This document shows, piece by piece, positions 3,431-22,308 of a stretch of 64,000 nt of DNA. Made by a program: the position numbers and the translations under genes. Under the pieces are notes generated by a model. The model saw nothing but the letters and a program-made list of their open reading frames with translations, did no database searches and was not told where the DNA came from. Position 1 is the first letter of the stretch, and each line of letters begins with the position of its first letter. Source of the DNA: a virus (lineage: Duplodnaviria; Heunggongvirae; Uroviricota; Caudoviricetes); the IMG/VR virus record IMGVR_UViG_3300033068_001142, positions 48,262 through 112,261 of that record; one strand, given 5' to 3'.

Positions 3431-4495
3431 CGTTTATATTCAACAGAAGTCGTTAATTTCTGCCGGTTCTCAGTAAGTATTTACATGAACTCCTGCATGT
3501 TTCCATGCAGACTAGACTATATCAACATCTCAAAAAGAGATGGAACCTGTTTCCTTCCACTTGGAAGTACGAGCATTTCAGCTCTAGTCGTTGGACATTT
3601 ACAGCATAATTGCTGATTTAGTAACAGATTGCCCTCGTCTTTACGTTAGGGGTTTCCTGTTTTAAGGTTCTTTAGACATGAAATCGCTTTCATGAATGCC
3701 TATACTTGATAAAAATTTAACAGTTGTTTTATTAGTTGGAAATACTATTTCAGAATCGGATAGTAAGTTATTATTAGAATGTGGCCAATTCATTAATTTT
3801 ACAAAAGAGTCGTAAGCCTTTGCTGCTTCTATTGCTGATTTAAATGATCCTATTCCGTAATGTTTATGCTCGTAATTTATATGAGCTACCCATAGTGTAT
3901 CATGTATTTTAATTATACCTTTATAACCGGTAGTATTAGTTTTTTTGATTGTACGTTGATTTACTATTTGTATAGAATAATTAACCCATCTACAGTTAGA
4001 TGGTTCATAGTTACCGTCGTTATCTTTACGGTCTATAGTAAGTCCCTCTTGATACCCGTTAGAGATAGCCCAATCATAAAAAGCGTCAAATGAGTTTATC
4101 CATTCTTCACACATAGTGATATTTTTACTAAGGTATGATACTGATCTAGAATCTGTACATTTTAACTTAGTTTTAGTATCTGCCCAAATTCTATAAAGTT
4201 TATGGTTTCTGTTTGGTTTTTTATTTGATGTTCCGTTACATCCTTTACAAAATAATTGATTTTGTGATTTAGTTGTAACTACTGCATCAAAGTGGGATAA
4301 ACAGTTTGTACATTCGAATGTTGCCATTCTTACTTTTTTGTAATAATTTTCCGTTGGTTTTTTCATTCCAAGATCTTTTATGACTTTCATTTTGAAAGTG
4401 TATTCTGTTAAAGGTTTTAGTGCTGCCATAATAATGCTCCTTATATGTTTTAATAAGTATAGCATAATTATGCCAAAATGTCAAGTATTTAGTTA
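3431..4495 (-). ncRNA. Group I intron (IA, T4-like core) interrupting the exonuclease gene; carries an HNH endonuclease ORF
   Basis: Exon 1 ends GCU, followed by an in-frame UAA. The 3' part carries Q-like AAAUCAGCAAUU, R GUCCAACGACUAGAG, S UGAUAUAGUCUAGUCUG and AAUUAACGACU 17 nt before the terminal G. Splicing restores the Exo II motif ...VWHNA|SFDLKH. Confidence 0.75.
3662..4465 (-). CDS. Intron-encoded HNH homing endonuclease
   Basis: 267 aa with an HNH_3-type motif ...DRKDNDGNYEPSNCRWVN... It lies entirely inside intron 1 on the same strand. Confidence 0.75.
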   Translation of the reverse strand: MLYLLKHIRSIIMAALKPLTEYTFKMKVIKDLGMKKPTENYYKKVRMATFECTNCLSHFDAVVTTKSQNQLFCKGCNGTSNKKPNRNHKLYRIWADTKTKLKCTDSRSVSYLSKNITMCEEWINSFDAFYDWAISNGYQEGLTIDRKDNDGNYEPSNCRWVNYSIQIVNQRTIKKTNTTGYKGIIKIHDTLWVAHINYEHKHYGIGSFKSAIEAAKAYDSFVKLMNWPHSNNNLLSDSEIVFPTNKTTVKFLSSIGIHESDFMSKEP

Positions 4496-4882
4496 AGCGT
4501 TGTGCCAGACTTGTTTTATTGGTGTTGTAACTAGCCAGTTTAAGGTGATGTCTCGCATACGTGTGTCTGTGAAAATGATTACGTATGCAGTTGTTTCTGA
4601 TGTTGCTATGGAGCAGTGTGTCATCCTAACGAGTGATGGATGTGAAATACCAGAAGATAGAATGGCTTGGTTTGTTTTATGGTAAGCTAATGAGTTGGGT
4701 GGTAGAGCTGCAAGTTTTAGTTTTAGTCGTTCTTTTTCCTCGTCAGTGTACTTGGATGCAGTTTCAAAGTCACAAGCGATTATTGGGTAGGTTTTTGCAA
4801 TGTCTTGTAGCGTTTGAAGGAGTAGTAATTGGTTAGTTATTACAGTGTAAGTTACTGTTGTTGAGGTAGTCAATGTTTCCAA
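4496..4882 (-). CDS. DnaQ-like 3'-5' exonuclease, exon 1
   Basis: Exo I motif IIACDFETAS. The exon ends ...IKQVWHNA, the first half of the Exo II H-N-A-x-F-D motif, and is immediately followed by a stop inside the intron. The start is an apparent TTG with an AAGGA RBS. Confidence 0.75.
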
Positions 4883-5108
4883 GTTCTGTCCTTAATTGTA
4901 TTTTTGGTTCAACGTAGCGGTATTCTAGTTGTACAGCGTTTAGTAATACTTTGTGAGCTCTTGTACAAGCGACATAGTAAAGATTTAGTTCAGTTTGTTC
5001 TTCCTTTGTTAGTTGGTCGTATGTGATGTTTTTAGAAGCCATAGAGATTTGTACCATTTTTACGGCATTGTTTAAGTCATCAGCAATGTAAACCTCGTCA
5101 TACTCAAG
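4833..5108 (-). CDS. SF1 (UvrD/Dda-like) DNA helicase, exon 2
   Basis: It begins LEYDEVYIADD... immediately after motif V and contains YVACTRAHKVL, the SF1 motif VI. The junction ...TAHSTKG|LEYDEVYI matches the UvrD pattern TLHSAKGLEF. Confidence 0.75.
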   Translation of the reverse strand, partial: LEYDEVYIADDLNNAVKMVQISMASKNITYDQLTKEEQTELNLYYVACTRAHKVLLNAVQLEYRYVEPKIQLRTELGNIDYLNNSNLHCNN

Positions 5109-5389
5109 CATTATGTTCCGTATAAGGCGTTAATTTATACGTGCAGCATTACCTGCAACTATACATTACTGTATAGATCAGACTATATCTTCATCCCAGT
5201 AGGATGCTCCCCGTTTCCACCCACTTGGGTGTACGTGCAAAAGCACTAGTCGTTGAACGTTCCTCGTTATGAGGCTTCGCTGCTGATTGTCCTAGGAGTA
5301 GGATGTCCCAGCAATTAGAGGAGTTTTGATACACATTACTGTGTAAAAGGGCCTATGTAGTTTTATTATGAGTCACTCAACTTAAATTA
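5109..5389 (-). ncRNA. ORF-less group I intron (281 nt) in the helicase gene
   Basis: Exon 1 ends GGU, followed by UAA. Core elements read on the minus strand: P UAAUUGCUGGGACA, Q CAAUCAGCAGCG, R GUUCAACGACUAGUG, S GAAGAUAUAGUCUGA, and AAUUAACGCCU 16 nt before the terminal G. Confidence 0.8.
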
Positions 5390-6625
5390 ACCCTTAGTTG
5401 AGTGAGCTGTTCCTAAATGGAAAGAGCTTGTTAGTCTTTCGTGTTTTTTTGCTTCTTCGTAACAACTAAGTACTCCAGTAACTCTGTATTTTAGAATTAG
5501 ACTGATTGCTGTTGATACTTGCTGGTCTTCTTTATAGAGGTCTTTTAAGTAGTTTAAGTGGTTTCTGTACTTTAAAATTAGTTCTCTATCTTCGTAGTAG
5601 TCGTTGATGTCTTGTTGAATGCTTTTGAATTCAACTGGCATGAAGCCTTTGTTTTTAGAAAGACAAAGTGCTTTCGGTAATGAGAAGATATCATCAGCTG
5701 AACGAGTTAAGGTGTACGGGACTTTTAGTTCGTTTAGTTCCATCATTTTAGAGATTAGTGTTGTGTTTGTTCTTGCAATGAAGGCTTGGGTTTTTGGTTT
5801 GTCTGGTGACTGTTCAGTTCCGTTGAATACCATTTTAGGATCTATGTAAGTTTTACAGTAGCTGTTGACTCTTTCTGCAATTTGAGGTGAAACTCTAAAT
5901 GACTTTGACATTGGGAATTCTACACCAGTTGATTTCATTACGTTGAAGCAGTTAATGGTGTGGTTAAAGCTGTAAATGTTTTGACGAGAATCTCCGACTA
6001 AGAGTTTCTTGGCAGAAGGGATTAGTTTAAAGATTTCTAGTGTTACTGGGTTGATGTCACCAGCTTCGTCAAGAGCAATGAAGTCAAATGGTTGGTAAGA
6101 GATGTGGTCGGTAGCTAAGAGTATATGGAAGTATTTTAGGTAAAATTCGTGAGTACATTCGATGTCACCACTTTCCATTTGATGGATATAGGATTCTAGT
6201 AGTAATAGTTCTTTTTCTGTTATGGGTACTTTTTCTTCTTTGCAGAAGTCTGAGAAATGTAAGTGTTTAGATAGAAAGTACTCTTTTAAGTAGTCTACGA
6301 GTTCACAACGTCTTTCGTATGGAATGTCTTGGTTGATGTTACGGTAATTGAATTTGCCGAGTGTTAAGTGGTTTTTTACTACCGTTGGTCTGTAAGCTAA
6401 TGAATGTACGGTACAGCAAGTTACTGTTTTGGGGAACTTGGATGCAGCTTCGGTTGCAATGCTTTTATTATAAGCTAAGTAAAGAGCGTTAGTAGGGTTA
6501 AGTGCTTTTGCTATTGATACTAAGAGCGCTGTTTTTCCTGCCCCTGCTACGGCATTTACTTTTACGTAGCCATCATTAGATTTTACATGATTTAGTATTT
6601 GGTGTTGTTCGTCTGTTAATTTCAA
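5390..6625 (-). CDS. SF1 (UvrD/Dda-like) DNA helicase, exon 1
   Basis: Walker A AVAGAGKTALL, motif Ia TVHS, motif II ALDEAGD, motif III LLVGDSRQ, motif V TAHSTKG at the extreme end of the ORF. Confidence 0.75.
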
Positions 6626-6760
6626 TAAAAATCCTTAGTGAAGATATTAAAGGTATTAATACCTTTGTAAAGATTTATAGTAGCTAGGAGAGAGATTAGC
6701 TACTATAAAGTTGAAGGGGAGTTAAAAATACGGACTTATACCTGAAGGATGCCGTGAGTG

Positions 6761-7492
6761 TTACTTTCTAAATAAGCTGCCTGCAGGTTTTACTTGTGAC
6801 GCTGGAGCTGTTGATTTAGTAGCTGTAGCATCGTTTGATTTAGCCTTTTTCCAAGCTTCTACATCTTCAGCTGTTAAGTCGTCTAAGTAACGAACAGCAT
6901 CTGCGTAACTTGCTTTGTCTTTTTCAAGTTGAACACCAACTTCAGAGTTGTTAACGATTTCTCTAACAGATGCACCGTCTTCTGCTCTATAAAATGCTAC
7001 TGGTACCATTGATTTTCTGATTTCTTTAGTTGTAGCGTTGATTGAGTATTCTTCTTGTAATCTGATTTTGATTGGTAAGTCTGTGAATTGAGTTATGATG
7101 TTGAACTCTTTTGCTTTTGCTTCTTTACCAACTTTGAATGTTTCTTGTTCTACTTCTAATTCGTCATTGTCACCTAAACCTGCAATAACTCCTAATGAGT
7201 TGATTAATTGCATACCAATTTTTAATGGTTCGTTTTTTGTTGATGTGATGTATGGTCCGTAGATTGTTTGAGCATTACCGTTATACTCGATGTTAAAGTT
7301 AACAGATTGAGCTCCGTTTTTAGATACTTCTACCGAAGCGAATTTGATGATTACGTCATAGATACCAGACTTGCTGATGTATGATGAACCTCCGCTTGAT
7401 TGAATAGCGTCTGAGTTAGTTGAGATTTTAAATAATTTCATTGTGGTCCTTTTTGAGTTGAGATGTATGCAAAATATTGCATAAGAGAGCAC
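6761..7492 (-). CDS. Hypothetical protein (possible ssDNA-binding or annealing accessory protein by position)
   Basis: 243-aa ORF between the helicase and a RecA-like ATPase. No motif was recognised. The real start is probably the internal MKLFKIS. Confidence 0.3.
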   Translation of the reverse strand: MLSYAIFCIHLNSKRTTMKLFKISTNSDAIQSSGGSSYISKSGIYDVIIKFASVEVSKNGAQSVNFNIEYNGNAQTIYGPYITSTKNEPLKIGMQLINSLGVIAGLGDNDELEVEQETFKVGKEAKAKEFNIITQFTDLPIKIRLQEEYSINATTKEIRKSMVPVAFYRAEDGASVREIVNNSEVGVQLEKDKASYADAVRYLDDLTAEDVEAWKKAKSNDATATKSTAPASQVKPAGSLFRK

Positions 7493-7519
7493 TAGGAGAG
7501 GTAGTGCTCTATATGAATA

Positions 7520-8194
7520 TTAAAGAAGGAATTCTTCGAATTCTACAGCTTTTGCTGATAATTGGTCTAAGTGATCTTGAAGAGAGTAGTCTTCAATGTT
7601 TACCGAATCAGGCACGTCTGCTAACGTTGTTCTTGATGGATACTTTAATCCTTTTAAGTGGACTACTAGTTTACTAGATTTAACCTCGATAAAGGCAGCA
7701 TCGTTAACAACAGAAGTCCATGAGCCCGCTTTTGCAAATGCTCCAGTAGCTGGAATAATGTGTCTTGCAGTAGCTTCGTCATATAAAGTGTGGGCAACAA
7801 TAACTACATTGATACCTGCTGGTATAAGCTGTTGTTCAATGAATTGATTGAATGCCATTGTTTCTTGATTGTTTTTGGTGTGGACGTCAAAACCTTTGTA
7901 TTTATCCGAGTTGTACTTTTGCATAGCAGAGTACATTTGAGTAACTGTGTCAAATACAACTGTTTCTGGGTAGTGTCCAAATTTGTCGTGGTATGCTTGA
8001 AGCTTACCTGTAAATTGTTCTAATAGTTTGTCCATACCTTCGTACTCTTTTATGTTAACATGAGGTACTTTAAAACCGTATTCTTTTTGGTCTAAGTTAA
8101 AAATTAGGGGGTTCCTTAGTGCTGAAGTTAGGGTTGATTTTCCTGACTTTTCAAAAGCACATAATAGAAATTTAACTCCTGATTTTGCTGACAT
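7520..8194 (-). CDS. RecA-fold P-loop ATPase (Sak4-like)
   Basis: Walker A FEKSGKST near the N-terminus and a Walker B-like VVFDTV. Size and context resemble phage Sak4-type ATPases. Confidence 0.5.
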   Translation of the reverse strand: MSAKSGVKFLLCAFEKSGKSTLTSALRNPLIFNLDQKEYGFKVPHVNIKEYEGMDKLLEQFTGKLQAYHDKFGHYPETVVFDTVTQMYSAMQKYNSDKYKGFDVHTKNNQETMAFNQFIEQQLIPAGINVVIVAHTLYDEATARHIIPATGAFAKAGSWTSVVNDAAFIEVKSSKLVVHLKGLKYPSRTTLADVPDSVNIEDYSLQDHLDQLSAKAVEFEEFLL

Positions 8195-8255
8195 TATGAC
8201 TCCTTATGGTGATATTTGATTAAGACTATTGAAGGGAAAGGCGTTATACAAGTCT

Positions 8256-8537
8256 TCAGTTTAACGCCCTGGGTTTTAGGAGTTTAATGTTTGGTAATTG
8301 GGTTATTGTAAATCTTTTTCCAATAAGGAAATGGTTCCAAAATCCTTGTATGTGTTCAGCGTAATTATCCGGGGATTTAATTATGTATCCTTGTATTTCA
8401 TCACGATCAGGACGTGCAGGTTCACTGTGTGTAGGATCATATAAAAACGTGTAGTTGTCTAGTCTTAGTTGAAGACCTTGTTTAGCTAAGGTTAAGAATT
8501 CGTCTTTAGTAAAAGTTTTTCTTTGGTTTAGTTGCAT
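8256..8537 (-). CDS. LLKP-tail family small protein (N-domain: KDEFLTLAKQGL type)
   Basis: 93 aa, ends ...QLPNIKLLKPRALN. The N-terminus is paralogous to 8528..8815, 8806..9093 and 26582..26878. Confidence 0.5.
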   Translation of the reverse strand: MQLNQRKTFTKDEFLTLAKQGLQLRLDNYTFLYDPTHSEPARPDRDEIQGYIIKSPDNYAEHIQGFWNHFLIGKRFTITQLPNIKLLKPRALN

Positions 8538-8815
8538 TTACGTGTCCTTAAAAGTTTAAGTTTTGGTAGGGTTACAATAGTAAAGGTGTTAACACTGTCA
8601 AAGAAGTACCAACAAGAGTTAATTGGTACTTCAAGTTCAATGTCTAATAGTTGTATTGTTTGTAAGTATCCTTGGATTGATCCAGTCCTGCTGAAGTTTT
8701 TGTCAGAGTTTTGCTTGTAGTAGTACTTAGAACCTGTTCGTGAGACTACTAGTCCAGCTTTTGCTAGTAGTAGGAACTTTTGTTTTGATAGTGTAATTAC
8801 GTCTCCTACTTGCAT
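8528..8815 (-). CDS. LLKP-tail family small protein
   Basis: 95 aa, MQVGDVITLSKQKFLLLAKAGL..., ends ...LPKLKLLRTRKCN. Confidence 0.5.
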   Translation of the reverse strand: MQVGDVITLSKQKFLLLAKAGLVVSRTGSKYYYKQNSDKNFSRTGSIQGYLQTIQLLDIELEVPINSCWYFFDSVNTFTIVTLPKLKLLRTRKCN

Positions 8816-9093
8816 GTTTTTGCCTTTAGTAGGAAGATGTTTGCAGGTCTTACTACTACAAGTGTTTCGCTAGTAAGAATGCTCCAAAGCCCGTAAATGT
8901 GTTCTACTGGTTTTAGGTCAGATTCTCCGTAGCAGTAGTTCTGTACACCGCCGTAACTAGATTCTGCTTGGATGTGAAACGGTGCGTAGAAAAAGTAAGT
9001 ATCTTGGTCTTTAACTTTTACTGCTAGGCCTTGTTTGGCTAGTCTAATAAATTGCTCTTTTGTTAGTTTAAGCTCGGTTCCGACTGGGTACAT
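8806..9093 (-). CDS. LLKP-tail family small protein
   Basis: 95 aa, ...LKLTKEQFIRLAKQGL..., ends ...ANIFLLKAKTCK. Confidence 0.5.
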   Translation of the reverse strand: MYPVGTELKLTKEQFIRLAKQGLAVKVKDQDTYFFYAPFHIQAESSYGGVQNYCYGESDLKPVEHIYGLWSILTSETLVVVRPANIFLLKAKTCK

Positions 9094-9461
9094 TGCTTGC
9101 TCCTTAGTGGTTTTAAGTAAAGTGGTGTAACTACTATGTAGGTGTTGATATCGTCTAAGACTCTTAGGTCGTAGTTAGATAAGGCAGAAGTTTTGTCACT
9201 ATATGACCAAGAGTACTTCATACGTAGTCCTGGGATTGGTCCTGGGTACTTGTATTTAATAGCTTTTGGATTAAATGAGTATTGAATTGAATTTAACTGT
9301 AGTTTAGCACCTGCTTTTAGGTATTTTAGCATTAGTTCAAAGTTACAAGTTACTGTTGAATTTTGTTTATGTATTGACATGTCTAGCCTTTTGAAGTTGT
9401 GGTCTTTTAAGTTGTTTAACAATGAATGTGTTCTTTGGTCTAAGGAAGTAGTCCCAAACAC
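9063..9461 (-). CDS. LLKP-tail family small protein (divergent)
   Basis: 132 aa, ends ...TPLYLKPLRSKQCTQSEPSLN. It is part of a tandem array with overlapping start and stop codons. Confidence 0.4.
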   Translation of the reverse strand: MFGTTSLDQRTHSLLNNLKDHNFKRLDMSIHKQNSTVTCNFELMLKYLKAGAKLQLNSIQYSFNPKAIKYKYPGPIPGLRMKYSWSYSDKTSALSNYDLRVLDDINTYIVVTPLYLKPLRSKQCTQSEPSLN

Positions 9462-9684: not shown

Positions 9685-9685
9685 G

Positions 9686-11632: not shown

Positions 11633-12120
11633 GAGTAGTCCTTTACGATTGTGTCGAATACTTTCTTGTTTGGGTGATAACGTGGGTGTGCATCGATTTC
11701 GGAGGTAAAGCTTGTTTGATAGTTGTATTTAGCATCTTCACCAATACCGAAATACTTGATACATTCAATGGCCTTACCAACTCCAGCTGAGCGAGAAACT
11801 CCAGCTCGACATTGAACTAAGAAACGAGAAGTTAAGTTGCCTAAGATGAACTGTTGGAGTTGCTTGCCTTGCTCGTCGGTGATTGGTAAGTAGTTGCCGA
11901 TTTGTTCCTCGATATCCCAGAATTTAAGTTTGATACAAGATTTAAACCTACCAGCGTCAAGGTCTGATATAGCCTCGTCTTGGTAATGCTCGAATAAAGG
12001 CTCAGAGATGCTGATTAAAACTAAGTTAGATGGATCGAATGTTGGGTCAGATAAGAGCTGTCGCATTTCATGACGGCCAATAATAGCTTCGATTGTGGAA
12101 GTAGAGACAGAGTTTACCAT
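11629..12120 (-). CDS. Cys-based (CX5R) protein/polynucleotide phosphatase
   Basis: VQCRAGVSRSAG matches the HCxxGxxR(S/T) P-loop of protein-tyrosine/dual-specificity phosphatases. At 163 aa it is the size of a minimal DSP fold. Confidence 0.55.
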   Translation of the reverse strand: MVNSVSTSTIEAIIGRHEMRQLLSDPTFDPSNLVLISISEPLFEHYQDEAISDLDAGRFKSCIKLKFWDIEEQIGNYLPITDEQGKQLQQFILGNLTSRFLVQCRAGVSRSAGVGKAIECIKYFGIGEDAKYNYQTSFTSEIDAHPRYHPNKKVFDTIVKDYS

Positions 12121-13883
12121 CTTAGTACCTGATTGAGTACTGTGATTTGTAAACGGTCTTGTGGCATGCTGTATAACCAGTAATCGTTGATACGGTTGAT
12201 TAAGTCGATTACTTCTTGTTTTTCCATTTTTAGATCGAAGTAGGCGTATTTAGCTGCCCAAATTAGTTTACGTGAGCCTTCGCCGTCAGCTGCGTTGAAT
12301 GCTGGTGCAAATGTTACTGATTCATTAGCTATTAGTGATTTACGTTGAGCGTCTGAAAGAGTTTTGGCAACAGTTGAGGGTGCGTTTTCAGATGCTTCGT
12401 GGGCTTTCATTAAGTAGTCACGAACAGAAATTGGCGTTGCGTCTGTAACTGAAAGAACAGTACGAGTTGAGTCTTTTTCCCAGTACGAGAAGAAGATTTG
12501 TGATTGCGGTAAATGGTCAACTGTTAGTGATAAGTCTTCAGCAATTGATGTGTAGAAGTTTCTCCAAACAATTGAGTCAACGTCAACTACTGAGTCTAGT
12601 TCTAGTAGTACTCTGAATTTGTATTCGTTGTGTTGGTCAGAACCAAGTGCAATGTGGTGATTGATGTCTGACAGTAGGAGGTGAGCTTCGCTAGCCGTAA
12701 TTAGAGATGAGTCTATGTCTAATACTAGCCATTTTGCACCACTAATGATGTTGGCTTTTCCACGTACTCCGTCCTTGAATTGGAATGGTGAGTATGCAAA
12801 GTTGCCTTGTAGCAGTTGAGCTAAGTCAGCAAATGTTGCAGGTTCACATTCAAATCCATAGGTTGCTGAAGCTGCTACTGACGATTTTAAGTCACGTATT
12901 GTGTCGTAACTAGCGTTTTGTTTAATAGCTTCTAGTAGTTTGTCGTTGTTGATTGGTTTAACTGATACTAAGAGAGAGTCTGTTCGTTGGATACGCTTGT
13001 AGTGGATGTAGACTCCGTCTTCAGAAACAGTGTAGATTCCAAGTTTGTCATAGACAGCAGCTGGTGCTATTAGTTCTTTTAAGCGGGTTTTAGCGTTGGC
13101 TGTTGAAGCTATGAAACCTTTTTTCTTTAAGTTGTGAATGTCAATTGAGGTTTCACCAGTAATGGCATCAACTGAAGATTGCATGTAGTCAGCAAATCGT
13201 TCGTATGGAAGTTTATTTAGTTCCAGTTCGAAAAGTTCCATGTCATGTGATAGAGACTCACAGAATCTAATAGCTTCAATGTAGTGGTCAAGTGTGATTG
13301 AGTCAGCACAGTAGATTAATGCTAGAGCACCTGCTAGTTTGAGGGCTTTCCATTGAAGATGTTTACGAACCAATGCTGAAACAGATGAGGGAGCTAGTGA
13401 TGTTGTTGCTAGTTCTTTGTTGTAACGTTTGTAGACTTTGAATGCGTCGACTACGGCTTTGTCAATTGGTAAAAGTTCACCGGCTTTTGTTAGCTGGTAT
13501 TGAGTGATTTGCTTCATTTCACTAGAGATTGATTCTTGTAGTGAAATAGCGTGGTAGTCAGCACCGTTGTCTGAAGCTAAGAAGGCTTCGATGGAGTCGA
13601 ATTCAGGTTCGCTAAGTGATTCAGGTATGTAGCAAAAGAATGAACGTCTAGCTAGTTTTGACATGAAGGCTAGTTGGAATTTCTTTTTAACAGTCTCGTC
13701 ATACAGGATGTAAGCTGGTGAGCCTACGAAGAATGCTGATACTGGTTGACCTTTGATTTCAGAAGAACGAGAATCTACTCCTTTGGTGTACTTAACCTCT
13801 TTTTCACCGACGTCGTAAACTTCAGCTAAGGTTTTGATGTTTTCAAGAATGTCACCGTTAGTTGCAAGTTCGTCTCCAAGTTC
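12114..13883 (-). CDS. Putative DNA replication protein (primase/primase-polymerase-like), exon 2
   Basis: About 590 aa continuing from exon 1. It contains ...GAKWLVLDIDSS... (a D-x-D motif of AEP/TOPRIM type) and a C-terminal helical region. The exact 3' splice site is inferred from the conserved AAUUAACGACU + 16 nt + G spacing and the reading frame (...LLYAG|ELGDEL...). Confidence 0.45.
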   Translation of the reverse strand, partial: ELGDELATNGDILENIKTLAEVYDVGEKEVKYTKGVDSRSSEIKGQPVSAFFVGSPAYILYDETVKKKFQLAFMSKLARRSFFCYIPESLSEPEFDSIEAFLASDNGADYHAISLQESISSEMKQITQYQLTKAGELLPIDKAVVDAFKVYKRYNKELATTSLAPSSVSALVRKHLQWKALKLAGALALIYCADSITLDHYIEAIRFCESLSHDMELFELELNKLPYERFADYMQSSVDAITGETSIDIHNLKKKGFIASTANAKTRLKELIAPAAVYDKLGIYTVSEDGVYIHYKRIQRTDSLLVSVKPINNDKLLEAIKQNASYDTIRDLKSSVAASATYGFECEPATFADLAQLLQGNFAYSPFQFKDGVRGKANIISGAKWLVLDIDSSLITASEAHLLLSDINHHIALGSDQHNEYKFRVLLELDSVVDVDSIVWRNFYTSIAEDLSLTVDHLPQSQIFFSYWEKDSTRTVLSVTDATPISVRDYLMKAHEASENAPSTVAKTLSDAQRKSLIANESVTFAPAFNAADGEGSRKLIWAAKYAYFDLKMEKQEVIDLINRINDYWLYSMPQDRLQITVLNQVLRW

Positions 13884-15138
13884 CGTGATATTCACATGCA
13901 GTCGTTAATTGCATGCCGTGAGACACTGCTCACTGCTACATGTTTCCATGCAGACTAGACTATATCTTTACCCGTTTAAAGGTTATTTAAGTTACTATAT
14001 GGTACACTACTAAAAATTTTAACAAGGAATACCGATGGAAATATATAAAGACATAAAAAATTATGAAGGAATATATAAAGTATCGAATTACGGTAATGTA
14101 TATTCTTACTACACTGATAAGATACTGAAACCTATCAAATTTAAAACTAACGTAACTACTTATTTAAGAGTAGATTTAGTAAAAAATAAGAAAAAGTGTA
14201 AGCACTCAATACATAAGCTAGTAGCAGAAGCGTTTATAGAAAATATTGATAATAAACCATGCGTTAATCATATTGACAATGATGCTAGTAATAACCGTGT
14301 TGATAACCTTGAATGGTGTACACATAGTGAAAATTTACTACATGCCCAAAAACAAGGGAGGTTATATGAAGCTCAAAGTAAAGGTGGAATAACTACTACA
14401 AATAAACTAAAGAAATTAGCTGTAGAAGATGCTCACTTGATGGTAGATAAGGTTTATGGCACATGGAAAGTATTAGTTCATACAGGAACTAAAACGGTAT
14501 CAAAAATTCTTGAACGTCATACATTTAATTGTAAGTGTGTAAATTGTGGTAGTGAAAAAGAACTAACTAGGGATTACCTTAAAACTGAACCTAAACAATG
14601 TAGAAATTGTGATGCAATTAAGAAATCACATAACAGATATTTAGAAGCAGTTAAAGAATTAGTTAGTAGTAAATTAAATAATTGGACAATTTTAGAAATT
14701 ACTAAACCAACAACTACTATTAGAAGTAGTAAGTTACTAGTTAAGTGTGAATGCGGTCATAATGACGAAATTCCATATGGCAGCATTAGCAAAAAACAAT
14801 TTAAAAAATGTCCTAACTGTAAATTAGGGTAGCTCCTATTTCCCTCCACTTGGAGGTACGTCTTTCGACTAGTCGTTGAACCTTTAACCTGAAAATAGGT
14901 TACTTGGCTGCTGATTGCCCAATCTAATCAATTTTTAACATTCAAGCTCACTCTTACGAGTCACTTTGTAGTTTGATTAGCTCTAAGGGGTTTCCAGCAA
15001 TTAAAGAGCTTCATATTACACATTACTGTGTAAATGGGCTAGTAATATACATTGCTCTTAAATCTAGTAAATAATACTATATCATTTGTCTATTTTCATC
15101 TAATAGTATTTAGTAGATAGCACAAGAATATTACGTTA
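13884..15138 (-). ncRNA. Group I intron in the replication-protein gene, carrying an antisense HNH endonuclease ORF
   Basis: Exon 1 ends GGU, followed by UAA. Core elements: P UUAAUUGCUGGAAACCCC, Q GGCAAUCAGCAGCC, R GGUUCAACGACUAGUCGAAAG 5' of the ORF, S AAGAUAUAGUCUAGUCUG 3' of the ORF, and AAUUAACGACU near the 3' end. Confidence 0.7.
14035..14832 (+). CDS. HNH homing endonuclease (NUMOD4 + HNH_3 type) encoded antisense inside intron 3
   Basis: 265 aa: YKVSNYGNVYSY (NUMOD4-like), VNHIDNDASNNRVDNLEWCTHSEN (HNH), C-terminal CxxC pairs. It is the only plus-strand gene in the 0-44 kb block. Confidence 0.75.
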   Translation: MEIYKDIKNYEGIYKVSNYGNVYSYYTDKILKPIKFKTNVTTYLRVDLVKNKKKCKHSIHKLVAEAFIENIDNKPCVNHIDNDASNNRVDNLEWCTHSENLLHAQKQGRLYEAQSKGGITTTNKLKKLAVEDAHLMVDKVYGTWKVLVHTGTKTVSKILERHTFNCKCVNCGSEKELTRDYLKTEPKQCRNCDAIKKSHNRYLEAVKELVSSKLNNWTILEITKPTTTIRSSKLLVKCECGHNDEIPYGSISKKQFKKCPNCKLG

Positions 15139-15633
15139 ACCTGCGTATAGGAGCCCAGCACCTATAGGGTGTTCTGCGATGTCATTAATATGTTGGATTA
15201 GTCCTGGGCCAGTAGTTGGTGACATGAAGATTGGGGCTGGTTCTTTGTAGAATGGTTTTGGGTCTGTTTCTCCAGCTTCTTGCATTTTCTTACGAGCTTC
15301 TGCTTTAGCTAGGGTAGTGATTCGCTCTTTAATGTCATTGTAGCCTAGTGAGAAACATTTACGAGCTGCACGAACTGAGGAGTCTTTGTGGTCACCAGAG
15401 CCTGTTACTACGAATGAGATTGAGTTAATTGGTACTGGTGTACCATCCCAGTGGTTGATGTTTCTACGGAATTGTGAGGCAAATGTCATTAACTCAGAAA
15501 CAGCTATAGTTAGTTTCATTCGTTCTGGGACGGTTGCAAAAGGGATTGTGTCTGCGATTTTTGAGATGATTGGTGATTGCTCTTTTGAGAATGCACCTTT
15601 GTCTTCAAGGTATTGTTTAGTTAGTTCTAACAA
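15139..15633 (-). CDS. Putative DNA replication protein, exon 1
   Basis: 165-aa ORF ending ...GAGLLYAG immediately before the UAA that opens the intron, the same exon-U|UAA junction as the other three introns. Confidence 0.5.
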
Positions 15634-16418: not shown

Positions 16419-16684
16419 AGTAGTTCTAAAATTTGTGGTTTTATGGCTTGGTATGCTTTTGGTGTTAGCTTTAGTAGAACTGCAAATTGACGGTCTGTTA
16501 GTGCTAGGAAGTACTGCCTGTGTTTAGATGTTAGTAATTGTTTTAATACTAATAGTCTTAGTTGTTGTTGTACTAGTAAACGATTAGTAATATCTAAGGT
16601 TGGGAATAAGGTGGGTATTTGAGACTTTGGTATTGAGTCTGCAAAAGATTGTACTAGTAATTTAGCTGTTTCATAGTCGTTCAT
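16415..16684 (-). CDS. Hypothetical protein
   Basis: 89-aa ORF, translationally coupled to its neighbours. Confidence 0.35.
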   Translation of the reverse strand: MNDYETAKLLVQSFADSIPKSQIPTLFPTLDITNRLLVQQQLRLLVLKQLLTSKHRQYFLALTDRQFAVLLKLTPKAYQAIKPQILELL

Positions 16685-16712
16685 TTTGAGTTCCTTGTAG
16701 TACTAGGGTTGG

Positions 16713-17027
16713 TTACCCTAGTAATGAGTTTGTTAATCTGTCGATTTGTGCTTTTACTTTAGCAGTTTTAGTTTCTAATGAAACTACTTTGTAGTTTGTG
16801 TGTGATGCTTGAGATAAGCTAACACCGTTGGCTTTTAATGTTTTGTTTAATTTGCTAACTGCAAAGCCTTTTTGTAATTGGAAGTTGTTGATTACTCTAG
16901 TTGCTGCGATTCTGTCTGCTGGTAGTTCAGTTGGAATAGAGATTCCTAATTTTTTACACAATACTGTATCAGTGATTGTAGTACCTAATTTTAATTCTGC
17001 GATAAATTTTTTATTTAATTTTTTCAT
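16713..17027 (-). CDS. Hypothetical protein
   Basis: 104-aa basic protein. Confidence 0.35.
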   Translation of the reverse strand: MKKLNKKFIAELKLGTTITDTVLCKKLGISIPTELPADRIAATRVINNFQLQKGFAVSKLNKTLKANGVSLSQASHTNYKVVSLETKTAKVKAQIDRLTNSLLG

Positions 17028-17051
17028 GTTGTTTCTCCTGTTGTAATATTT

Positions 17052-18011: not shown

Positions 18012-18301
18012 GTCTCTCCTTTAGTGTTTGTTTTAGGTTTTAATAATTTAATTGGGTATAATTTTACCATTTCAGTGTTCCAGAAGAATTCTTCATCATC
18101 TAAGTTTATGTGAAATGTGTAAGGTCTTGGACCTCCATAACGGCCAGAAGTACGATCTAGCTTAGTTATTACAAATTCTTGTCCTTCATAGTCTAACATA
18201 TCAAAAGCAACACCTAGGTCGTCTCCATTAGGGTCAACGTAATACCTATCAACGTCTAATTGTCGTTTTACTTTGCCTCTCATTCCTATTTTTGGTATCA
18301 T
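17999..18301 (-). CDS. LLKP-tail family small protein (WNTxMV type), inside the ligase cluster
   Basis: 100 aa, ends ...FWNTEMVKLYPIKLLKPKTNTKGETCAG. The tail overlaps the RBS and ATG of 17052..18011. Confidence 0.5.
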   Translation of the reverse strand: MIPKIGMRGKVKRQLDVDRYYVDPNGDDLGVAFDMLDYEGQEFVITKLDRTSGRYGGPRPYTFHINLDDEEFFWNTEMVKLYPIKLLKPKTNTKGETCAG

Positions 18302-18600
18302 TTTGCAGTCCTTGGTTTAAGTATTGTTGTTGGGATTATGTCTACCATTGCCGTATTCCACCACCAAATGCTGTCATCATCGTTAAGAAATTTTATTTTA
18401 AATTCAGATGGATAGTATTTGTCAATTGCACATATCTCTCCGATTTTGTCCCTATATAATATCATGGCTGGGTTGCAATATAATCCTTTGTATTTCTTAC
18501 CAGCTTTTACGGTAGATTTTACTTTAACGTGCATACCAAGTTTAAGTATCATAGTAGTTCCTTTATGGCGTCTCCAACTAGTTGAGTTGTAGTACCGCAT
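18298..18600 (-). CDS. LLKP-tail family small protein (WNTxMV type), inside the ligase cluster
   Basis: 100 aa, ends ...WWNTAMVDIIPTTILKPRTAK. It is a paralogue of 17999..18301. Confidence 0.5.
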   Translation of the reverse strand: MRYYNSTSWRRHKGTTMILKLGMHVKVKSTVKAGKKYKGLYCNPAMILYRDKIGEICAIDKYYPSEFKIKFLNDDDSIWWWNTAMVDIIPTTILKPRTAK

Positions 18601-19274
18601 AGTCCAAAGGCAGTGTTTATTTCCAAGATGTAAAGGTTTTGGTCTTCATCTTCGATTATGTCTACGGCACCATAAGTTAGGTTTAACGCTGTTAAGGATT
18701 TAGTAGCTAAGTCTGGTAGAATTACTGGGAATTCAATGTCGTTTCTAGCGAATATGTAACCGTTAGCACAGTTCCAGATGTATGGTGATCTTTCACCTTC
18801 GAAGTCACGTTTTTTAAGTTTCTTTTTCATGTCTACAACACGGTTGTTGACTACAATTGCACGGTACTCATGTTTTTTCTCAATGAACTTAGTGTATAGT
18901 GGTGCGTTTGGTAGCTCAGATGGCTTACCAACTACGATACCTTCACCTGAGTGACCTGTTACTGTTGTACGAGCTAAGTAGGTTGTTTCTTCTTCAAGTT
19001 CGGTTTTGCTGAAATAGAAGTCTGGTGTAGGAAGCTCAGCTGCTTTTAGTTTTGTAAAGGTTGTGATTTTGTTAGCTGCATCTTTTACTGATTGAAGTGG
19101 GTTAAGGTAACGAGAGTTGTGGACTACGTTAACGTTACCCCAGTTTATGATAGTGTCTGTTGGTTTACCTCTAAATTTGCTGTGTCTGTGTTGGATACGT
19201 TTGATGTTTAGGTAATCAGCTAAGGCTTTTGCAGAGTTTGAAGGTTTGTAAGACTGAACTCTTAAACGTCTCAT
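18549..19274 (-). CDS. ATP-grasp family ligase (RimK/glutathione-synthetase-like)
   Basis: ...GEGIVVGKP..., ...YGAVDIIEDEDQNLYILEINTAFGL..., the C-terminal ATP-grasp signature. The 5' 50 nt of the track ORF overlap 18298..18600, so the real start is probably an internal Met. Confidence 0.6.
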   Translation of the reverse strand: MRRLRVQSYKPSNSAKALADYLNIKRIQHRHSKFRGKPTDTIINWGNVNVVHNSRYLNPLQSVKDAANKITTFTKLKAAELPTPDFYFSKTELEEETTYLARTTVTGHSGEGIVVGKPSELPNAPLYTKFIEKKHEYRAIVVNNRVVDMKKKLKKRDFEGERSPYIWNCANGYIFARNDIEFPVILPDLATKSLTALNLTYGAVDIIEDEDQNLYILEINTAFGLCGTTTQLVGDAIKELL

Positions 19275-20683
19275 CTATAAACCTTGATTTCTGCAATTTC
19301 TGAAGTGTTGATTGTGTAGTTTCCAGAACCTCCAGAAGATCTAACACCTCTAAAGTCTAAGCAAGTTGCACTTTTTTGGAAACTGAAGTGAGATGTGTCG
19401 CCTTGTACTGTAAACGAAAGTCCGTCTTTTAGTACTATTTGTAAAATGTTTGGTAAGTCTTTAACTGTTAGTTTAGAGAACGGTAAAGTTATCTCTTTTG
19501 GTTCTTTGTAGACTACTACGTTTTGGATGTCTTGTTTGAATTCAGTTACTGCTGTATTTAGCTGAGGGTAAGTTGTGATGTGTTTTGCAACGTACTTGAA
19601 GTAGTCTTTTAATGTAACTCTTTTAGCTGCTGGTCTTGTGTATTCAATTAATGAGTCTAAGAATTGGATATAAGTTTTTAAGCTGTTTAAGTCTGTTGTA
19701 GAGTTGAAGATTCTAACTTCGATTGTTGCTTCGTTACCTTCGTTGATTACATTGTATCTGTCCATTGAGATTGGTGCGTTATCTTTAGAGAACACTTTAC
19801 CAATTGGTCTGAATGGGCAATAGTTGTTTAATTTTCTTGTTGCTATGTGCTCTAACAAGTCTTGTGATGAGTATAGCAAGAAGTAGAACATTGCGTAGTG
19901 TTTTTTGTCTTTGAATGCCGTTCTACTGATGTGTACGTGACATCCGTTTGACTCAGACGTTTCAACTGATGTAGTTGCAACTGTGTTTAAGAATGACTTT
20001 TCAGCCATTAACTCTTCGAATGTGTGAGGGTGTGATACTACCTCAGCTCTAAATTGACCACCAGATATTGATGAGTCTGCTTTTAAGTAAACTTCACGTG
20101 AATGTTTTGCCATTACTTTTAGCGCTTCTTTTTTAGAGTTGAATCCGTATTCTAGTTCAATGCCGTAGAACTTTTTGTTAGGTGATTCACCTATAAATGA
20201 AGGAGTTGGTTTGTAACTGTGAGGGTTAACTTTCACTAAGTCTTCTTGACATGAGTCACATAAGTGGAATTCATTTGGAGTATCAATGCTAGCTCCACAG
20301 TTTACACATGAATGGTCGTTTAAGATCATTGTGTTAGTTGTAATGTTAAAGAACATGTTTGGAGTTGTTGTTTTAATGTTTTCAGACTGTAAGAATGGTT
20401 TAGTGTGGTTAAACTCGTAAACAGTGCTATTAATGTTTATACCTTTTATCCAAGATTCGTGGATTGGGTATTCTACGTTTTGGTGTTTAACAAAAATTTC
20501 AACACAGAATGCGTCTTCATTTTTCTTGAAAGTTGTTAATTCTAACTCTCTTGGTGCTGTATCTAAAGCTGAGTCATAAATAACGTAATCTTTACCTTTA
20601 AAGGTTTGTTCTGTTTCAAAGTCGTAAACTTCTTCTAATGTTTGATTAATTTTAGTTTTACTTTTTAATATTAGTTTTATCAT
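19271..20683 (-). CDS. Zn-ribbon + glutamine-synthetase-fold carboxylate-amine ligase (GCS2/YbdK-like amidoligase)
   Basis: N-terminal CVNCGASIDTPNEFHLCDSCQ. The C-terminal half has FYGIELEYGF (GxExE strand) and NGCHVHISR (G-x-H-V-H), as in YbdK/GCS2-type amidoligases. Confidence 0.5.
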   Translation of the reverse strand: MIKLILKSKTKINQTLEEVYDFETEQTFKGKDYVIYDSALDTAPRELELTTFKKNEDAFCVEIFVKHQNVEYPIHESWIKGININSTVYEFNHTKPFLQSENIKTTTPNMFFNITTNTMILNDHSCVNCGASIDTPNEFHLCDSCQEDLVKVNPHSYKPTPSFIGESPNKKFYGIELEYGFNSKKEALKVMAKHSREVYLKADSSISGGQFRAEVVSHPHTFEELMAEKSFLNTVATTSVETSESNGCHVHISRTAFKDKKHYAMFYFLLYSSQDLLEHIATRKLNNYCPFRPIGKVFSKDNAPISMDRYNVINEGNEATIEVRIFNSTTDLNSLKTYIQFLDSLIEYTRPAAKRVTLKDYFKYVAKHITTYPQLNTAVTEFKQDIQNVVVYKEPKEITLPFSKLTVKDLPNILQIVLKDGLSFTVQGDTSHFSFQKSATCLDFRGVRSSGGSGNYTINTSEIAEIKVYR

Positions 20684-20711
20684 AATTCTCTCTCCTATGA
20701 TGTTTTAAGTT

Positions 20712-20990
20712 TTAGTGTTTCCACAGCCTATCTGTAATTTGTTGAAAAGTAGTAGTTTCTAGTTTACCGTTTAAGAATACTGATTTTAATAAGCTATTGT
20801 TTTCTTCTTCCCAACTACAGTTATCCTTTAGTGTCAGTTTGTCATCTATTAATGTTACTTGTAATAAGCCTTGTGCAGATTTTTTAGTTCCATCATCTGT
20901 TATAGGGTCTTTTTGAATGTTAATAGGATTATCATTAATTATAGCAAATGTAGCTTTCATAGCAAATCCAAAAGTATCCCTAGTATTGTA
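20712..20990 (-). CDS. nadV: Nicotinamide phosphoribosyltransferase (NAMPT/NadV), exon 2
   Basis: ...YNTRDTFGFAMKATFAIINDNPINIQKDPITDDGTKKSAQGLLQV...LLKSVFLNGKL... aligns from memory with the C-terminus of NAMPT (…[28 protein letters not shown]…LLHTVFKNGKV…). The exact 3' splice site is ±a few codons. Confidence 0.65.
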   Translation of the reverse strand, partial: YNTRDTFGFAMKATFAIINDNPINIQKDPITDDGTKKSAQGLLQVTLIDDKLTLKDNCSWEEENNSLLKSVFLNGKLETTTFQQITDRLWKH

Positions 20991-22308
20991 CTGGTATGTA
21001 TATGCACATTGTTACTTAGGTATTTTTCCGTTAAGTACGTCCTCAATAAAAAGCTCTGTCGATTCTTTAGTTGAAGTTCTTAATTCTTTATAGTCTAAAA
21101 GAATGCTTTGTTCTAATAGGTATGCATTATAAAGTGTAGTTTCAAAAGTATCAATTATGCTAATGTCACATTTGAACTTAGACTTTAATGCATTTATGCG
21201 TTGTTTTAAATTTATAGTTATTCCAATTTTGAAGTATTGCCCTATTTGTAAATAATATAGGATAGCGGGTTTGTTTTTAAGATCATCACTTCTACTAAAT
21301 ATTGTCTCACAATACCCACCTGGTAGTTTGCCTTCTAGACATAGTGCATCTATTGTACATTTAGGACAACCTTGTCCAGCTATGTGTTTTTGGGCTGATT
21401 TTTTAAATTCTCCATGCACTTCACAGTAACAAGTAATGATTGACTTTTTGTTTATGTAATTACTACATTCGTAAGTATACTTACCGTTATATAAGTTTGT
21501 GGCATAATCAATAAATTCCTTAAACGTATGTGTTTTGATATTGGCTGATGATGCTATACCACATTTAGGACAACCTTTTGTCACATTTTTGCTTAATAGT
21601 GTATGCGGAGATGTTGAGTGTTCCCCATGTACTGGACATACTAAAGTTACTTTAGAATTTATACCAGTATAGTTATCTACTTTGAACTCAAAATTAGAAA
21701 ATTTATGTAAAAGTTTACTTTCTATTTCTTCCCATGTGTATTTTAATGGTTTAAATCCTGTCCGTCCTTTAGATTTTTGAGATCTCCTTAAAATTGCACA
21801 CTCCGGACATCCGTATATAGATGTTAAGTGTTTATCGGGGTTTTGTTCAAATTCACCATGGGTAGGACAAGTAATTATTGATTTTGTTTTAGCATTAGTG
21901 TATATAAACTTACTATAATCATACTTGCCATTATACTTTTTATTTGCTTTTTCTATAAATTTTTCTTTGTTTGTCATATTGTATCTCCTATCACTTATTG
22001 ATAAGTATACAATCTTTGTACTTAATAAATACTTAAGTAACAATGTGGACTATATCATCACCCTATAAAATAGGGGCTCACTGCTTCGACCCTGACAGGG
22101 GCCTACTCTCTTTCGAGATAGTCTCTGAACCTTCTCCTATACGGAGCTTGGCTGCGGATTGACCAATATTATAGATTTTTACTGTACTGTAGATAGTTAC
22201 TCTACACCCTATGCTATATTTCTATGTATAGTTAGTACTATAATATTAACGGAAGTTCCCGCAATTCAATGAGTTTTCGATATGGATTACTCCATAAAGG
22301 GGCCATTA
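20991..22308 (-). ncRNA. Group I intron in the NAMPT gene, carrying a Zn-ribbon/T5orf172 (GIY-YIG superfamily) endonuclease-like ORF
   Basis: Exon 1 ends UUU, followed by UAAUGG. Core elements: P CAUUGAAUUGCGGGAAC, Q GGUCAAUCCGCAGCC, R AGGUUCAGAGACUAUCUCGAAAG, S GAUGAUAUAGUCC, all 5' of the ORF. The NAMPT ORF stops in the middle of the conserved GSGG region. Confidence 0.7.
21012..22043 (-). CDS. Intron-encoded endonuclease-like protein: 3x Zn-ribbon repeats + C-terminal T5orf172 domain
   Basis: Three repeats of CPxHGE(F/H)x(13-16)GCPxC. The C-terminus ...ILYYLQIGQYFKIGITINLKQRINALKS matches the T5orf172/GIY-YIG-like motif. The probable true start is the internal ATG (MTNKEKF), preceded by AGGAGA. 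Confidence 0.6.
   Translation of the reverse strand: MLLKYLLSTKIVYLSISDRRYNMTNKEKFIEKANKKYNGKYDYSKFIYTNAKTKSIITCPTHGEFEQNPDKHLTSIYGCPECAILRRSQKSKGRTGFKPLKYTWEEIESKLLHKFSNFEFKVDNYTGINSKVTLVCPVHGEHSTSPHTLLSKNVTKGCPKCGIASSANIKTHTFKEFIDYATNLYNGKYTYECSNYINKKSIITCYCEVHGEFKKSAQKHIAGQGCPKCTIDALCLEGKLPGGYCETIFSRSDDLKNKPAILYYLQIGQYFKIGITINLKQRINALKSKFKCDISIIDTFETTLYNAYLLEQSILLDYKELRTSTKESTELFIEDVLNGKIPK

Follow-up and report, generated by a model that had tools for sequence, protein, structure and literature searches.

Four predicted subgroup IA2 group I introns in replication and nucleotide-metabolism genes of a marine phage, one with a putative endonuclease gene on the opposite strand

Results

Four phage genes are interrupted by predicted introns

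IMG/VR virus record IMGVR_UViG_3300033068_001142 comes from an uncultured marine phage (Caudoviricetes). Positions 48,262 to 112,261 of that record, a stretch of 64,000 nucleotides (nt) that we call the window, contain four replication and nucleotide-metabolism genes, each interrupted by a predicted group I intron. The genes from ~1 to 44.5 kb of the window are all on the minus strand, with the exception of a plus-strand gene located inside the third intron.

The first interrupted gene encodes a stand-alone 3'-5' exonuclease (Pfam DNA_pol_A_exo1, 7.6e-9 on the spliced 222-amino-acid [aa] product). Its exons, placed by translation like those of the other three genes, lie at 4496..4882 (exon 1) and ~3149..3430 (exon 2), and intron 1 (3431..4495, minus strand; 1065 nt; 5' GCU|UAAC, 3' ...AAACG|AGU) falls between codons in the Exo II motif, WHNA|SFD. 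The second gene encodes a UvrD-like helicase (Pfam UvrD-helicase, UvrD_C, and AAA_19; exon 1 at 5390..6625, exon 2 at 4833..5108) and is split between codons in superfamily 1 motif V, HSTKG|LEYDEV, by intron 2 (5109..5389, minus strand; 281 nt). Intron 3 (13884..15138, minus strand; 1255 nt) also falls between codons, LLYAG|ELGDE, and separates exon 1 (15139..15633) from exon 2 (12114..13883) of a gene whose spliced 754-aa product has no Pfam match and shares 48% aa identity over 751 residues with the protein annotated as "DNA primase, N4 gp43-like" of Alteromonas phage vB_AmaP_AD45-P1 (AD45-P1). A preliminary description of this sequence had given no host gene for intron 3, and we identify it here as the N4 gp43-like primase gene. 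The fourth gene (exon 1 at 22317..23727, exon 2 at 20712..21004) encodes NAMPT, as judged from matches to NAMPT entries in the Protein Data Bank (PDB) and from homologues with Pfam NAPRTase and NAMPT_N domains. It contains intron 4 (21005..22316, minus strand; 1312 nt) in phase 1 (GGG U|CA).

When spliced in silico, the exonuclease (QVWHNA|SFD), the helicase (AHSTKG|LEYDEV), and the primase (LLYAG|ELGDELA) align without gaps with the uninterrupted AD45-P1 gp071 (QVWHNYSYD), helicase (AHSSKGLEFDQV), and primase (IMYSGEFSDELA). Because these uninterrupted homologues align ungapped across them, we consider the junctions of introns 1 to 3 to be correct. The preliminary description had arrived at the same coordinates for these three introns and at the same exon ends, GCU|UAAC (4496|4495), GGU|UAAU (5390|5389), and GGU|UAAC (15139|15138), and had recognized the restored HNA|SFD and HSTKG|LEYDEV motifs. 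Its ends for intron 4 were displaced by 8 nt (5') and 14 nt (3'); the corrected exon end is GGGU|UAAC (22317|22316), and the restored peptide that it had proposed, GIGLTF|YNTRD, is wrong (see below).

The upstream exons each end in a stop codon and are listed in public gene calls as separate open reading frames (ORFs), so that four essential-looking genes are currently annotated as truncated halves. The junctions given here, including that of NAMPT, permit correct protein models.

Predicted structures place all four elements in subgroup IA2

Our criterion for a group I intron was a match of the core, P3 to P9, to Rfam model RF00028, for which the curated (gathering) score is 50 bits. On the minus strand, intron 2 matched over the full model (98.3 bits at 5398..5159), intron 1 scored 78.0 bits (3721..3493), and intron 4 scored 70.9 bits (22326..22026). 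Intron 3 matched in two pieces (43.4 bits at 15058..14732 and 25.2 bits at 13970..13938), because a 0.8-kb ORF separates P8 from P7'. A permissive Rfam scan of the whole 64-kb window gave zero group I matches beyond these four, the sole other match being a tRNA-Arg gene.

Subgroup IA2 is distinguished by extra P7.1 and P7.2 helices that lie between P7 and P3' and are joined by G-U-A (PMC3428280). This hallmark is present in the Rfam alignments of all four introns as an insert of 31 to 33 nt after GACUA, which reads GAGCUGAAAUGCUC-GUA-CUUCCAAGUGGAAG in intron 1, GUGCUUUUGCAC-GUA-CACCCAAGUGGGUG in intron 2, GUCGAAAGAC-GUA-CCUCCAAGUGGAGG in intron 3, and UCUCGAAAGAGA-GUA-GGCCCCUGUCAGGGUC in intron 4. 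Since two hairpins linked by GUA stand between GACUA and P3', we assign all four introns to IA2. By predicted structure, then, the four elements are genuine subgroup IA2 group I introns, and the initial classification of them as T4-type subgroup IA introns agrees with both the RF00028 matches and the hallmark.

Other conserved features were read directly from the sequence. The exon-terminal U is placed in a U.G wobble in P1 of each intron (U4496.G3700, U5390.G5352, U15139.G15039, and U22317.G22303), and each intron ends in G (3431, 5109, 13884, and 21005). By eye, P1 of intron 1 consists of U4496.G3700, C4497-G3699, and G4498-C3698, and that of intron 2 pairs AAGGGU (5395..5390) with GCCCUU (5352..5347). 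The R and S elements were found in 4 of 4 introns, as initially described. The consensus sequences that had been given for P and Q, AAUUGC(U/G)GG(A/G)A and AAUC(A/C)GCAGC, fail for intron 1, which has UUAAAACAGGAAA and AAUCUGUUAC in their place; here P4 is altered on both strands with its pairing preserved. The R element of intron 1 is GUCCAACGACUA. Folded as a single sequence, intron 2 yields P2 to P9.2 in its minimum free energy structure (z = -3.14).

In introns 1 to 3, the motif AAUUAACG(A/C)CU lies 15 to 16 nt before the terminal G, much as had been estimated (about 16 nt), and forms the loop of a 3'-terminal hairpin that we label "P9.2." The stem of this hairpin varies by compensatory changes. 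Its loop, (A/G/C)(U/C)UAACG(A/C)C, is near-invariant (3448..3458, 5125..5135, and 13900..13910, minus strand), is also seen in related loci from other phages (designated L017, L024, L026, L028, L030, and L044), and repeats the AACGAC of the R element. We considered whether the loop, (A/C)UAACGAC, uses its UUAAC to pair with a GUUAA that straddles the 5' splice site, which would allow 4 to 5 bp. The loop is near-invariant, however, and thus offers no covariation, and we did not adopt this pairing.

As first proposed, translation of unspliced RNA is predicted to be terminated early, at or within three codons of each intron start. All four introns begin U|UAA, and in introns 1 to 3 the UAA is the first in-frame codon. 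The UAA of intron 4 is not in frame, and its in-frame stop lies three codons further on.

Intron 3, which has the lowest Rfam score, could be examined by comparison. Single-protein queries gave no match in IMG/VR or Joint Genome Institute (JGI) metagenomes, and alignment-based queries succeeded in retrieving related loci. Intron 3 is absent from AD45-P1 and from 19 of 21 IMG/VR loci. Orthologues occupy the identical site in L017, L024/25, L026/27, L028/29, L030, and L113. RNAalifold analysis of six intron 3 orthologues, with the P7 pseudoknot outside the model, predicted 66 pairs, 39 of which have changed on both sides in a compensatory manner. The covarying helices, labeled according to our reading of the alignment columns, are P2, P3, P4, P5, P6, P7.2, P8, P9, and the 3' hairpin "P9.2." These compensatory changes argue that the ribozyme has been maintained.

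Some features weigh against the interpretation of the insertions as functional introns. No single intron 3 match attains 50 bits (the L024 orthologue scores 53.3 bits), the P1 helices are short (3 to 6 bp), and P10 is weak or absent, with 0 to 3 bp in all four introns, which makes it weakly informative for choosing splice sites. Formally, the insertions could instead be decayed ribozymes, or free-standing endonuclease cassettes between halves of genes that are expressed as split polypeptides. Split genes with free-standing endonucleases exist in T4-like phages (PMC2988022), and the in-frame stop at the end of each upstream exon, along with the subthreshold score of intron 3, would fit such an arrangement. 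However, introns 1, 2, and 4 have full-length Rfam matches, and the helices of intron 3 have been kept by compensatory changes across six lineages. Moreover, the breaks fall within indispensable motifs (Exo II, helicase motif V, and the GIGS loop of NAMPT), the exon 2 pieces have no start codon at the junctions, and the exons join precisely in frame to match uninterrupted homologues. We therefore regard nonfunctional insertions as extremely improbable. From the exact in-frame restoration of all four proteins, we infer that the introns are spliced.

The NAMPT intron has corrected boundaries and a probable footprint of homing

The initial placement of intron 4 at 20991..22308 is contradicted by several features, all of which favor 21005..22316, with splice sites GGGU|UAAC (5'; 22317|22316) and AAUGUG|CAU (3'; 21005|21004). 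In the Rfam alignment, P1 pairs GGGU (22320..22317) with GCCC (22303..22300), which places the 5' splice site after U22317, 8 nt upstream of the earlier site. At the other end, a stem encloses the intron ORF; its 3' arm (21005..21025, minus strand) is complementary to 22047..22027 and has the terminal G21005 as its last nucleotide. No inverted repeat found in the region is more complementary than this stem (21 nt, 95%, arms 1001 nt apart), and in the orthologous intron of L032 (ENA ERZ28615317) both substitutions in it retain pairing as G.U wobbles. Splicing from 22317 to 21004 yields ...LGIGSYTYQYNTRDTFGFAMKAT (GIG-S-YTYQYNTRD). The corrected protein aligns without gaps with PDB 9w5x (GIGSFTYQYNTRDTFGFAMKAT) at 162.9 bits, and the earlier junction requires two gaps and scores 145.3 bits. 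The corrected junction peptide, GIGSYTYQYNTRD, is also identical to that of an intronless NAMPT allele, P0121 (GIGSYTYQYNTRDTFGFAMKAT), which is 86% aa identical. In L032, A replaces the G formerly taken as the intron terminus (CAG to CAA, synonymous in the exon), and GUG|CAU is retained. P10 would comprise 3 bp at the corrected site, versus 2 at the earlier one.

The intron 4 ORF (21012..21977, minus strand, sense) encodes a predicted 321-aa protein with two DUF723 zinc modules and a T5orf172/MUG113 (GIY-YIG-like) nuclease domain (Pfam DUF723, 6.1e-15; T5orf172, 2.8e-6; MUG113, 5.1e-6; PHROG 681 "endonuclease," 1.2e-46) and sits in the loop of the terminal P9 stem. L032 carries the same intron and endonuclease gene at the same site, and its intron is 92.8% identical to that of the window (ribozyme, 96.9%; ORF, 91.5%). 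The NAMPT exons of L032 are far less similar (74.3% for exon 1 and 61.1% for exon 2), and their identity climbs toward the insertion site, reaching 93% over the adjoining 100 nt of exon 1 and 86% over the adjoining 50 nt of exon 2. The excess of intron over exon identity, the gradient in the flanks, and the intronless state of P0121 together suggest recent movement between phages. To judge from sequence, this pattern indicates the footprint expected of endonuclease-driven homing with co-conversion.

Introns of the helicase and exonuclease genes

Intron 2 has no ORF, and most of 80 metagenomic relatives have no intron at its insertion site. In L044 (1730..2860 and 3509..4171), the same helicase site is occupied by a 96.6-bit intron whose ORF encodes a product 33% identical to that of the intron 1 ORF. 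The exonuclease gene of L044 is uninterrupted and encodes the same WHNASFD peptide. Over short stretches, the L044 ribozyme resembles introns 1 and 2 of the window (84% identity over 44 nt and 72% over 110 nt, respectively). The L044 intron was considered as a direct source of intron 1; we rejected this as unproven, given that the endonucleases are only 33% identical and the ribozyme similarity is mosaic.

The intron 1 ORF (3662..4429, minus strand, sense; 255 aa) encodes a putative HNH-like homing endonuclease with an AP2-like DNA-binding part (PHROG 374 "HNH endonuclease," E value 3.5e-39); in Pfam it has only a weak AP2 match. It is placed in an extended P1 loop, and its 3' end extends through P2 into P3. 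AAGGAG lies 7 nt upstream of its ATG, and an inverted repeat (4462..4448 and 3714..3700; 15 nt, 87%) flanks it. The nuclease peptide, TIDRKDNDGNYEPSNCRWV, is not scored by Pfam HNH_3 and has Arg at the candidate catalytic position (IDRKD), where the L044 homologue has Lys (VDKD). Canonical HNH_3 proteins presumably have the first catalytic His (DH) at this position. The intron 1 ORF may thus encode a variant active site or an inactive nuclease, a further point on the opposing side. No orthologue of intron 1 was seen among the relatives, of which AD45-P1 and L044 are intronless at this site.

The primase intron is probably an old resident and carries an intact ORF on the opposite strand

Intron 3 is not more conserved than its flanking exons. 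Identity of L024 to the window is 69% in the exons, 68 to 72% in the ribozyme halves, and 71% in the endonuclease gene, and the corresponding values for L026, L028, and L030 are 56 to 60%, 54 to 66%, and 60 to 64%. This parallel divergence of exons, ribozyme, and HNH gene from L024 to L030 suggests long co-inheritance of the intron. The primase intron orthologues start with U|UAA in four lineages and with U|UGA in two; what is conserved at the start therefore appears to be a stop codon plus the first P1 pairs.

The intron 3 ORF (14035..14832, plus strand, antisense to both the intron and the primase gene) encodes a predicted 265-aa protein of the NUMOD4 plus HNH_3 homing endonuclease family (Pfam NUMOD4, 9.4e-9 and 35.8 bits with a cutoff of 23.4; HNH_3, 1.8e-8 and 34.3 bits with a cutoff of 24.8; PHROG 59, 2e-39). 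It is the sole plus-strand gene that we identified within the ~44-kb minus-strand block, in which other plus-strand ORFs were left unexamined. The ORF lies inside the P8 loop. By eye, P8 pairs UACCC (14831..14827) with GGGUA (13980..13976), and the last codons and stop codon of the ORF are the complement of the P8 5' strand. In L026, the antisense ORF continues through P3', P7.2, and part of P7.1. AAGGA (14024..14028) precedes the ATG by 6 nt, and a Shine-Dalgarno sequence is found 6 to 9 nt upstream of the ATG in every antisense copy.

The antisense layout is shared by L024/25, L026/27, L028/29, L030, and L113. The closest homologues of the ORF product (97, 66, 55, 54, and 55% aa identity) are all encoded antisense in the same position, flanked by minus-strand ORFs of 565 to 591 aa and 165 to 172 aa that correspond to primase exons 2 and 1. 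Their contigs come from unrelated samples, with 22 contigs for one homologue (P0004) by itself. Rfam detected the opposing-strand ribozyme in L024, L026, and L028, and reading of L030 by eye showed the S element and 3' hairpin. Across at least five lineages with 34 to 46% protein divergence, the antisense ORF is intact at 265 to 278 aa, with NUMOD4 and, weakly or faintly in some, HNH_3. Such an intact, codiverging ORF argues for expression and selection. A gene in this orientation cannot be translated from the primase pre-mRNA and so would have to use its own promoter. L017 has a homologous NUMOD4-HNH gene (37% aa identity) at the same site and in the same P8 loop, but in the sense orientation; there, an 11/12 match to a sigma-70-like promoter lies upstream, and the last codons form the S element.

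Two observations speak against a functional antisense gene. A scan for sigma-70-like promoters upstream of the antisense HNH gene found none above threshold in the window, L028, or L030; TTAAGT, 40 to 60 nt upstream of the ATG, is the only element common to the antisense copies, and we do not claim it as a promoter. In addition, the HNH gene of L113, a 98% relative, differs at 7 synonymous and 9 nonsynonymous codon positions, too few to demonstrate selection or for an informative dN/dS estimate. On these grounds, and given its lone position in the minus-strand block, the ORF could be a decaying remnant, such as an inverted cassette, that is neither expressed nor functional. Other properties do not fit decay: the ORF is intact with recognizable domains in at least five lineages from unrelated samples, the HNH protein diverges no faster than the primase, and the ATG and Shine-Dalgarno sequence are kept in each copy. 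An untranslated 800-nt frame in DNA of 31% G+C would not remain open at such divergence. We consider it unlikely that the ORF is a remnant.

We tentatively propose, with somewhat less than even confidence, that the primase intron represents a stable, previously undescribed phage arrangement in which a functional HNH gene is kept antisense in P8, with its coding end overlapping core helices. Endonuclease expression would then be uncoupled from the host pre-mRNA and under its own temporal control, and readthrough would not disturb ribozyme folding, which may explain why intron and endonuclease gene have persisted together across deep divergence instead of passing through the usual cycle of gain, decay, and loss. 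Two reviews (PMC3984707 and PMC2988022) and the other literature that we searched make no mention of antisense endonuclease genes for group I introns of phages or bacteria, which is not proof of absence. Among deposited phages, the antisense HNH protein has no close homologue (best match, 43% identity over 74% of the query).

Three of the related loci showed additional features in or near the primase gene. The L030 intron (3803..5790, minus strand; 1958 nt), which begins U|UGA, has two ORFs, one of 206 aa in the sense orientation in the P5 loop (4960..5580, minus strand) and an antisense NUMOD4-HNH ORF in P8 (4001..4813, plus strand). In L016 (6249..7309), the primase gene is split elsewhere, after ...CDSGAG in the TGSGxxKDSS motif, by an insert of ~1 kb with a 187-aa HNH-like ORF. 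This insert has no Rfam match at the gathering threshold and may represent either a diverged intron or a gene that has been split. L017 has a second group I intron (8204..8502, plus strand; 52.2 bits) with a NUMOD4-type HNH ORF (8460..9134) in the gene that follows the primase gene and that, from its position in AD45-P1, is rIIA-like.

The four introns are mutually divergent

The preliminary description had suggested recent intragenomic spread, and the introns might accordingly be copies of one another that moved within the genome by homing or reverse splicing. They belong to one structural subgroup, all begin U|UAA, and introns 1 to 3 have a common 3' hairpin loop, AUUAACG(A/C)C. Short stretches are also shared; the best internal blastn match joins introns 1 and 3 (55 bits; 35 nt, 94%, around S/P9), followed by introns 2 and 3 (44 bits; 47 nt, 83%, around the guide sequence, P2, and P3). 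The 33% identity between the endonuclease at the L044 intron 2 site and that of intron 1 makes long-term exchange between neighboring sites conceivable.

Alignment of the four introns without their ORFs, however, gave pairwise identities of 42 to 64%, below their identity to introns of Pseudomonas, Vibrio, Bacillus, and Staphylococcus phages. External blastn matches reach 144 bits at 76 to 79% identity; intron 2, for example, matches the intron in the RNA polymerase gene of Pseudomonas phage 201phi2-1 (144 bits; 76% identity across 214 nt). The cores of introns 1 to 3 matched 417 to 497 deposited phage records, and that of intron 4 matched 61. The endonuclease genes are unrelated or absent: HNH-like/AP2 in the P1 loop of intron 1, none in intron 2, NUMOD4-HNH in P8 of intron 3, and DUF723 plus T5orf172/MUG113 in the P9 loop of intron 4, the three ORFs belonging to different endonuclease families by Pfam and PHROG. 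For introns 3 and 4, other phages contain orthologues at the corresponding sites. Presence or absence varies among relatives for these two introns and at the intron 2 site, with intron 4 more conserved than its flanks. Finally, because the primase intron orthologues also start U|UAA or U|UGA, this start is a family trait, and the same applies to the UAACGAC loop found in the orthologues and L044; neither is a sign of recent duplication. Recent spread within this genome is thus contradicted by the comparisons, and we regard it as highly improbable.

Instead, the four elements are very probably independent members of a widespread phage family of IA2 self-splicing introns, caught at different stages of the homing cycle. 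Each lies in a highly conserved motif of its host gene (3'-5' exonuclease, UvrD-like helicase, N4 gp43-like primase, or NAMPT). After transcription, the P3-P9 core with its P7.1-GUA-P7.2 extension should fold, and P1 should hold the exon-terminal U in a U.G wobble pair; transesterification initiated by guanosine would then ligate the exons and restore the reading frames. In this model, intron 4 would have been transferred recently between phages by homing through its DUF723/T5orf172 nuclease, with co-conversion of flanking exon sequence. Intron 2 would represent the endonuclease-less stage, and intron 1 would carry its HNH-like gene in the P1 loop. Intron 3 would be an old resident that diverged in step with the primase gene and kept an intact opposite-strand NUMOD4-HNH gene in its P8 loop, expressed from its own promoter. 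Activity of the endonucleases and transcription of the antisense gene are likewise predictions from sequence.

Discussion

That replication and nucleotide-metabolism genes of a phage can harbor several IA2 introns with various endonucleases is already well known from T4, Twort, and K-type phages. Compared by general features rather than by alignment (see also PMC2988022), the introns described here resemble those of T4 td, nrdB, and nrdD (sunY) in being IA2 introns (here predicted to self-splice) in nucleotide-metabolism genes, with a P7.1/P7.2 extension, an exon-terminal U.G in P1, an early intron stop codon, endonuclease ORFs looped out from peripheral helices, and one intron without a working endonuclease. 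Unlike in T4, the host genes encode an exonuclease, a helicase, a primase, and NAMPT, the ORFs lie in P1, P8, and P9 loops and belong to other endonuclease families, and one ORF is on the opposite strand.

The cores are also similar by blastn (~67 to 79% over 170 to 215 nt and ~90% over 50 nt) to those of Staphylococcus Twort/K-type (Kayvirus) and other phage IA2 introns, although the hosts and host genes are unrelated. The clustering of several introns in one phage genome is an established pattern; Twort orf142, for example, has three introns.

Among phages, a close counterpart of intron 3 is the primase intron of L017 (IMGVR_UViG_3300045135_002242), which has the same site (YSG|E), the same 5' start (GGU|UAACGUAA), the same 3' hairpin and tail (AUUAACGAC ... 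UGAAUAUAACG|GAA), and a homologous NUMOD4-HNH gene in the P8 loop. The endonuclease gene of L017 is in the sense orientation, whereas that of the window and of four other lineages runs opposite to the ribozyme. Nuclear rDNA group I introns at position L2066 contain antisense His-Cys box endonuclease genes (PMC9548176). In those introns, too, the endonuclease gene is opposite the ribozyme strand and sense and antisense versions occur at one site; they differ in being eukaryotic, with Pol I or Pol II transcription, spliceosomal introns, and another endonuclease family. The window, in contrast, has a phage host, an interrupted protein-coding gene, and an HNH endonuclease gene with bacterial translation signals. 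The antisense endonuclease gene is one uncommon, modestly novel variant among otherwise ordinary introns. If expressed, it would represent in bacterial viruses the equivalent of the eukaryotic rDNA antisense endonuclease genes and would offer a natural test of how endonuclease expression is kept apart from ribozyme folding.

The locus brings together introns that differ in history and content: that of the NAMPT gene, apparently homed recently; that of the helicase gene, which lacks an endonuclease; and that of the primase gene, apparently a resident of long standing. These findings do not substantially alter the present view of group I introns.

Neighboring genes and related phages

A near-identity DNA search of a 22.5-kb segment against deposited phages returned only ~50-nt matches to intron cores, indicating that the phage is absent from that collection. 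Its source contig is 205 kb long (JGI), and Logan assemblies of SRR32380204 also contain fragments of it.

In the region 1..3200 (minus strand), an ATP-dependent DNA ligase gene stands between the DNA polymerase A gene (626 aa in the corresponding Logan contig) and the 3'-5' exonuclease gene. The order differs in AD45-P1, where the exonuclease-like gp071 lies directly upstream of the polymerase. The AD45-P1 (L001) gene for the alternative thymidylate synthase, thyX (5881..8146), is annotated as two halves around HNH and GIY-YIG genes, a split that probably reflects one more insertion, of an intron or an endonuclease gene, among these phages. The tRNA-Arg gene (anticodon GCG; 26899..26975, minus strand) was called by both ARAGORN and Rfam. 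Finally, a PRPP-synthetase-like gene (Pribosyltran_N; 24106..24933 by position in L031) lies close to the NAMPT gene (20712..24933, minus strand, for the two together), and the two form an NAD-salvage pair like those of other large phages.

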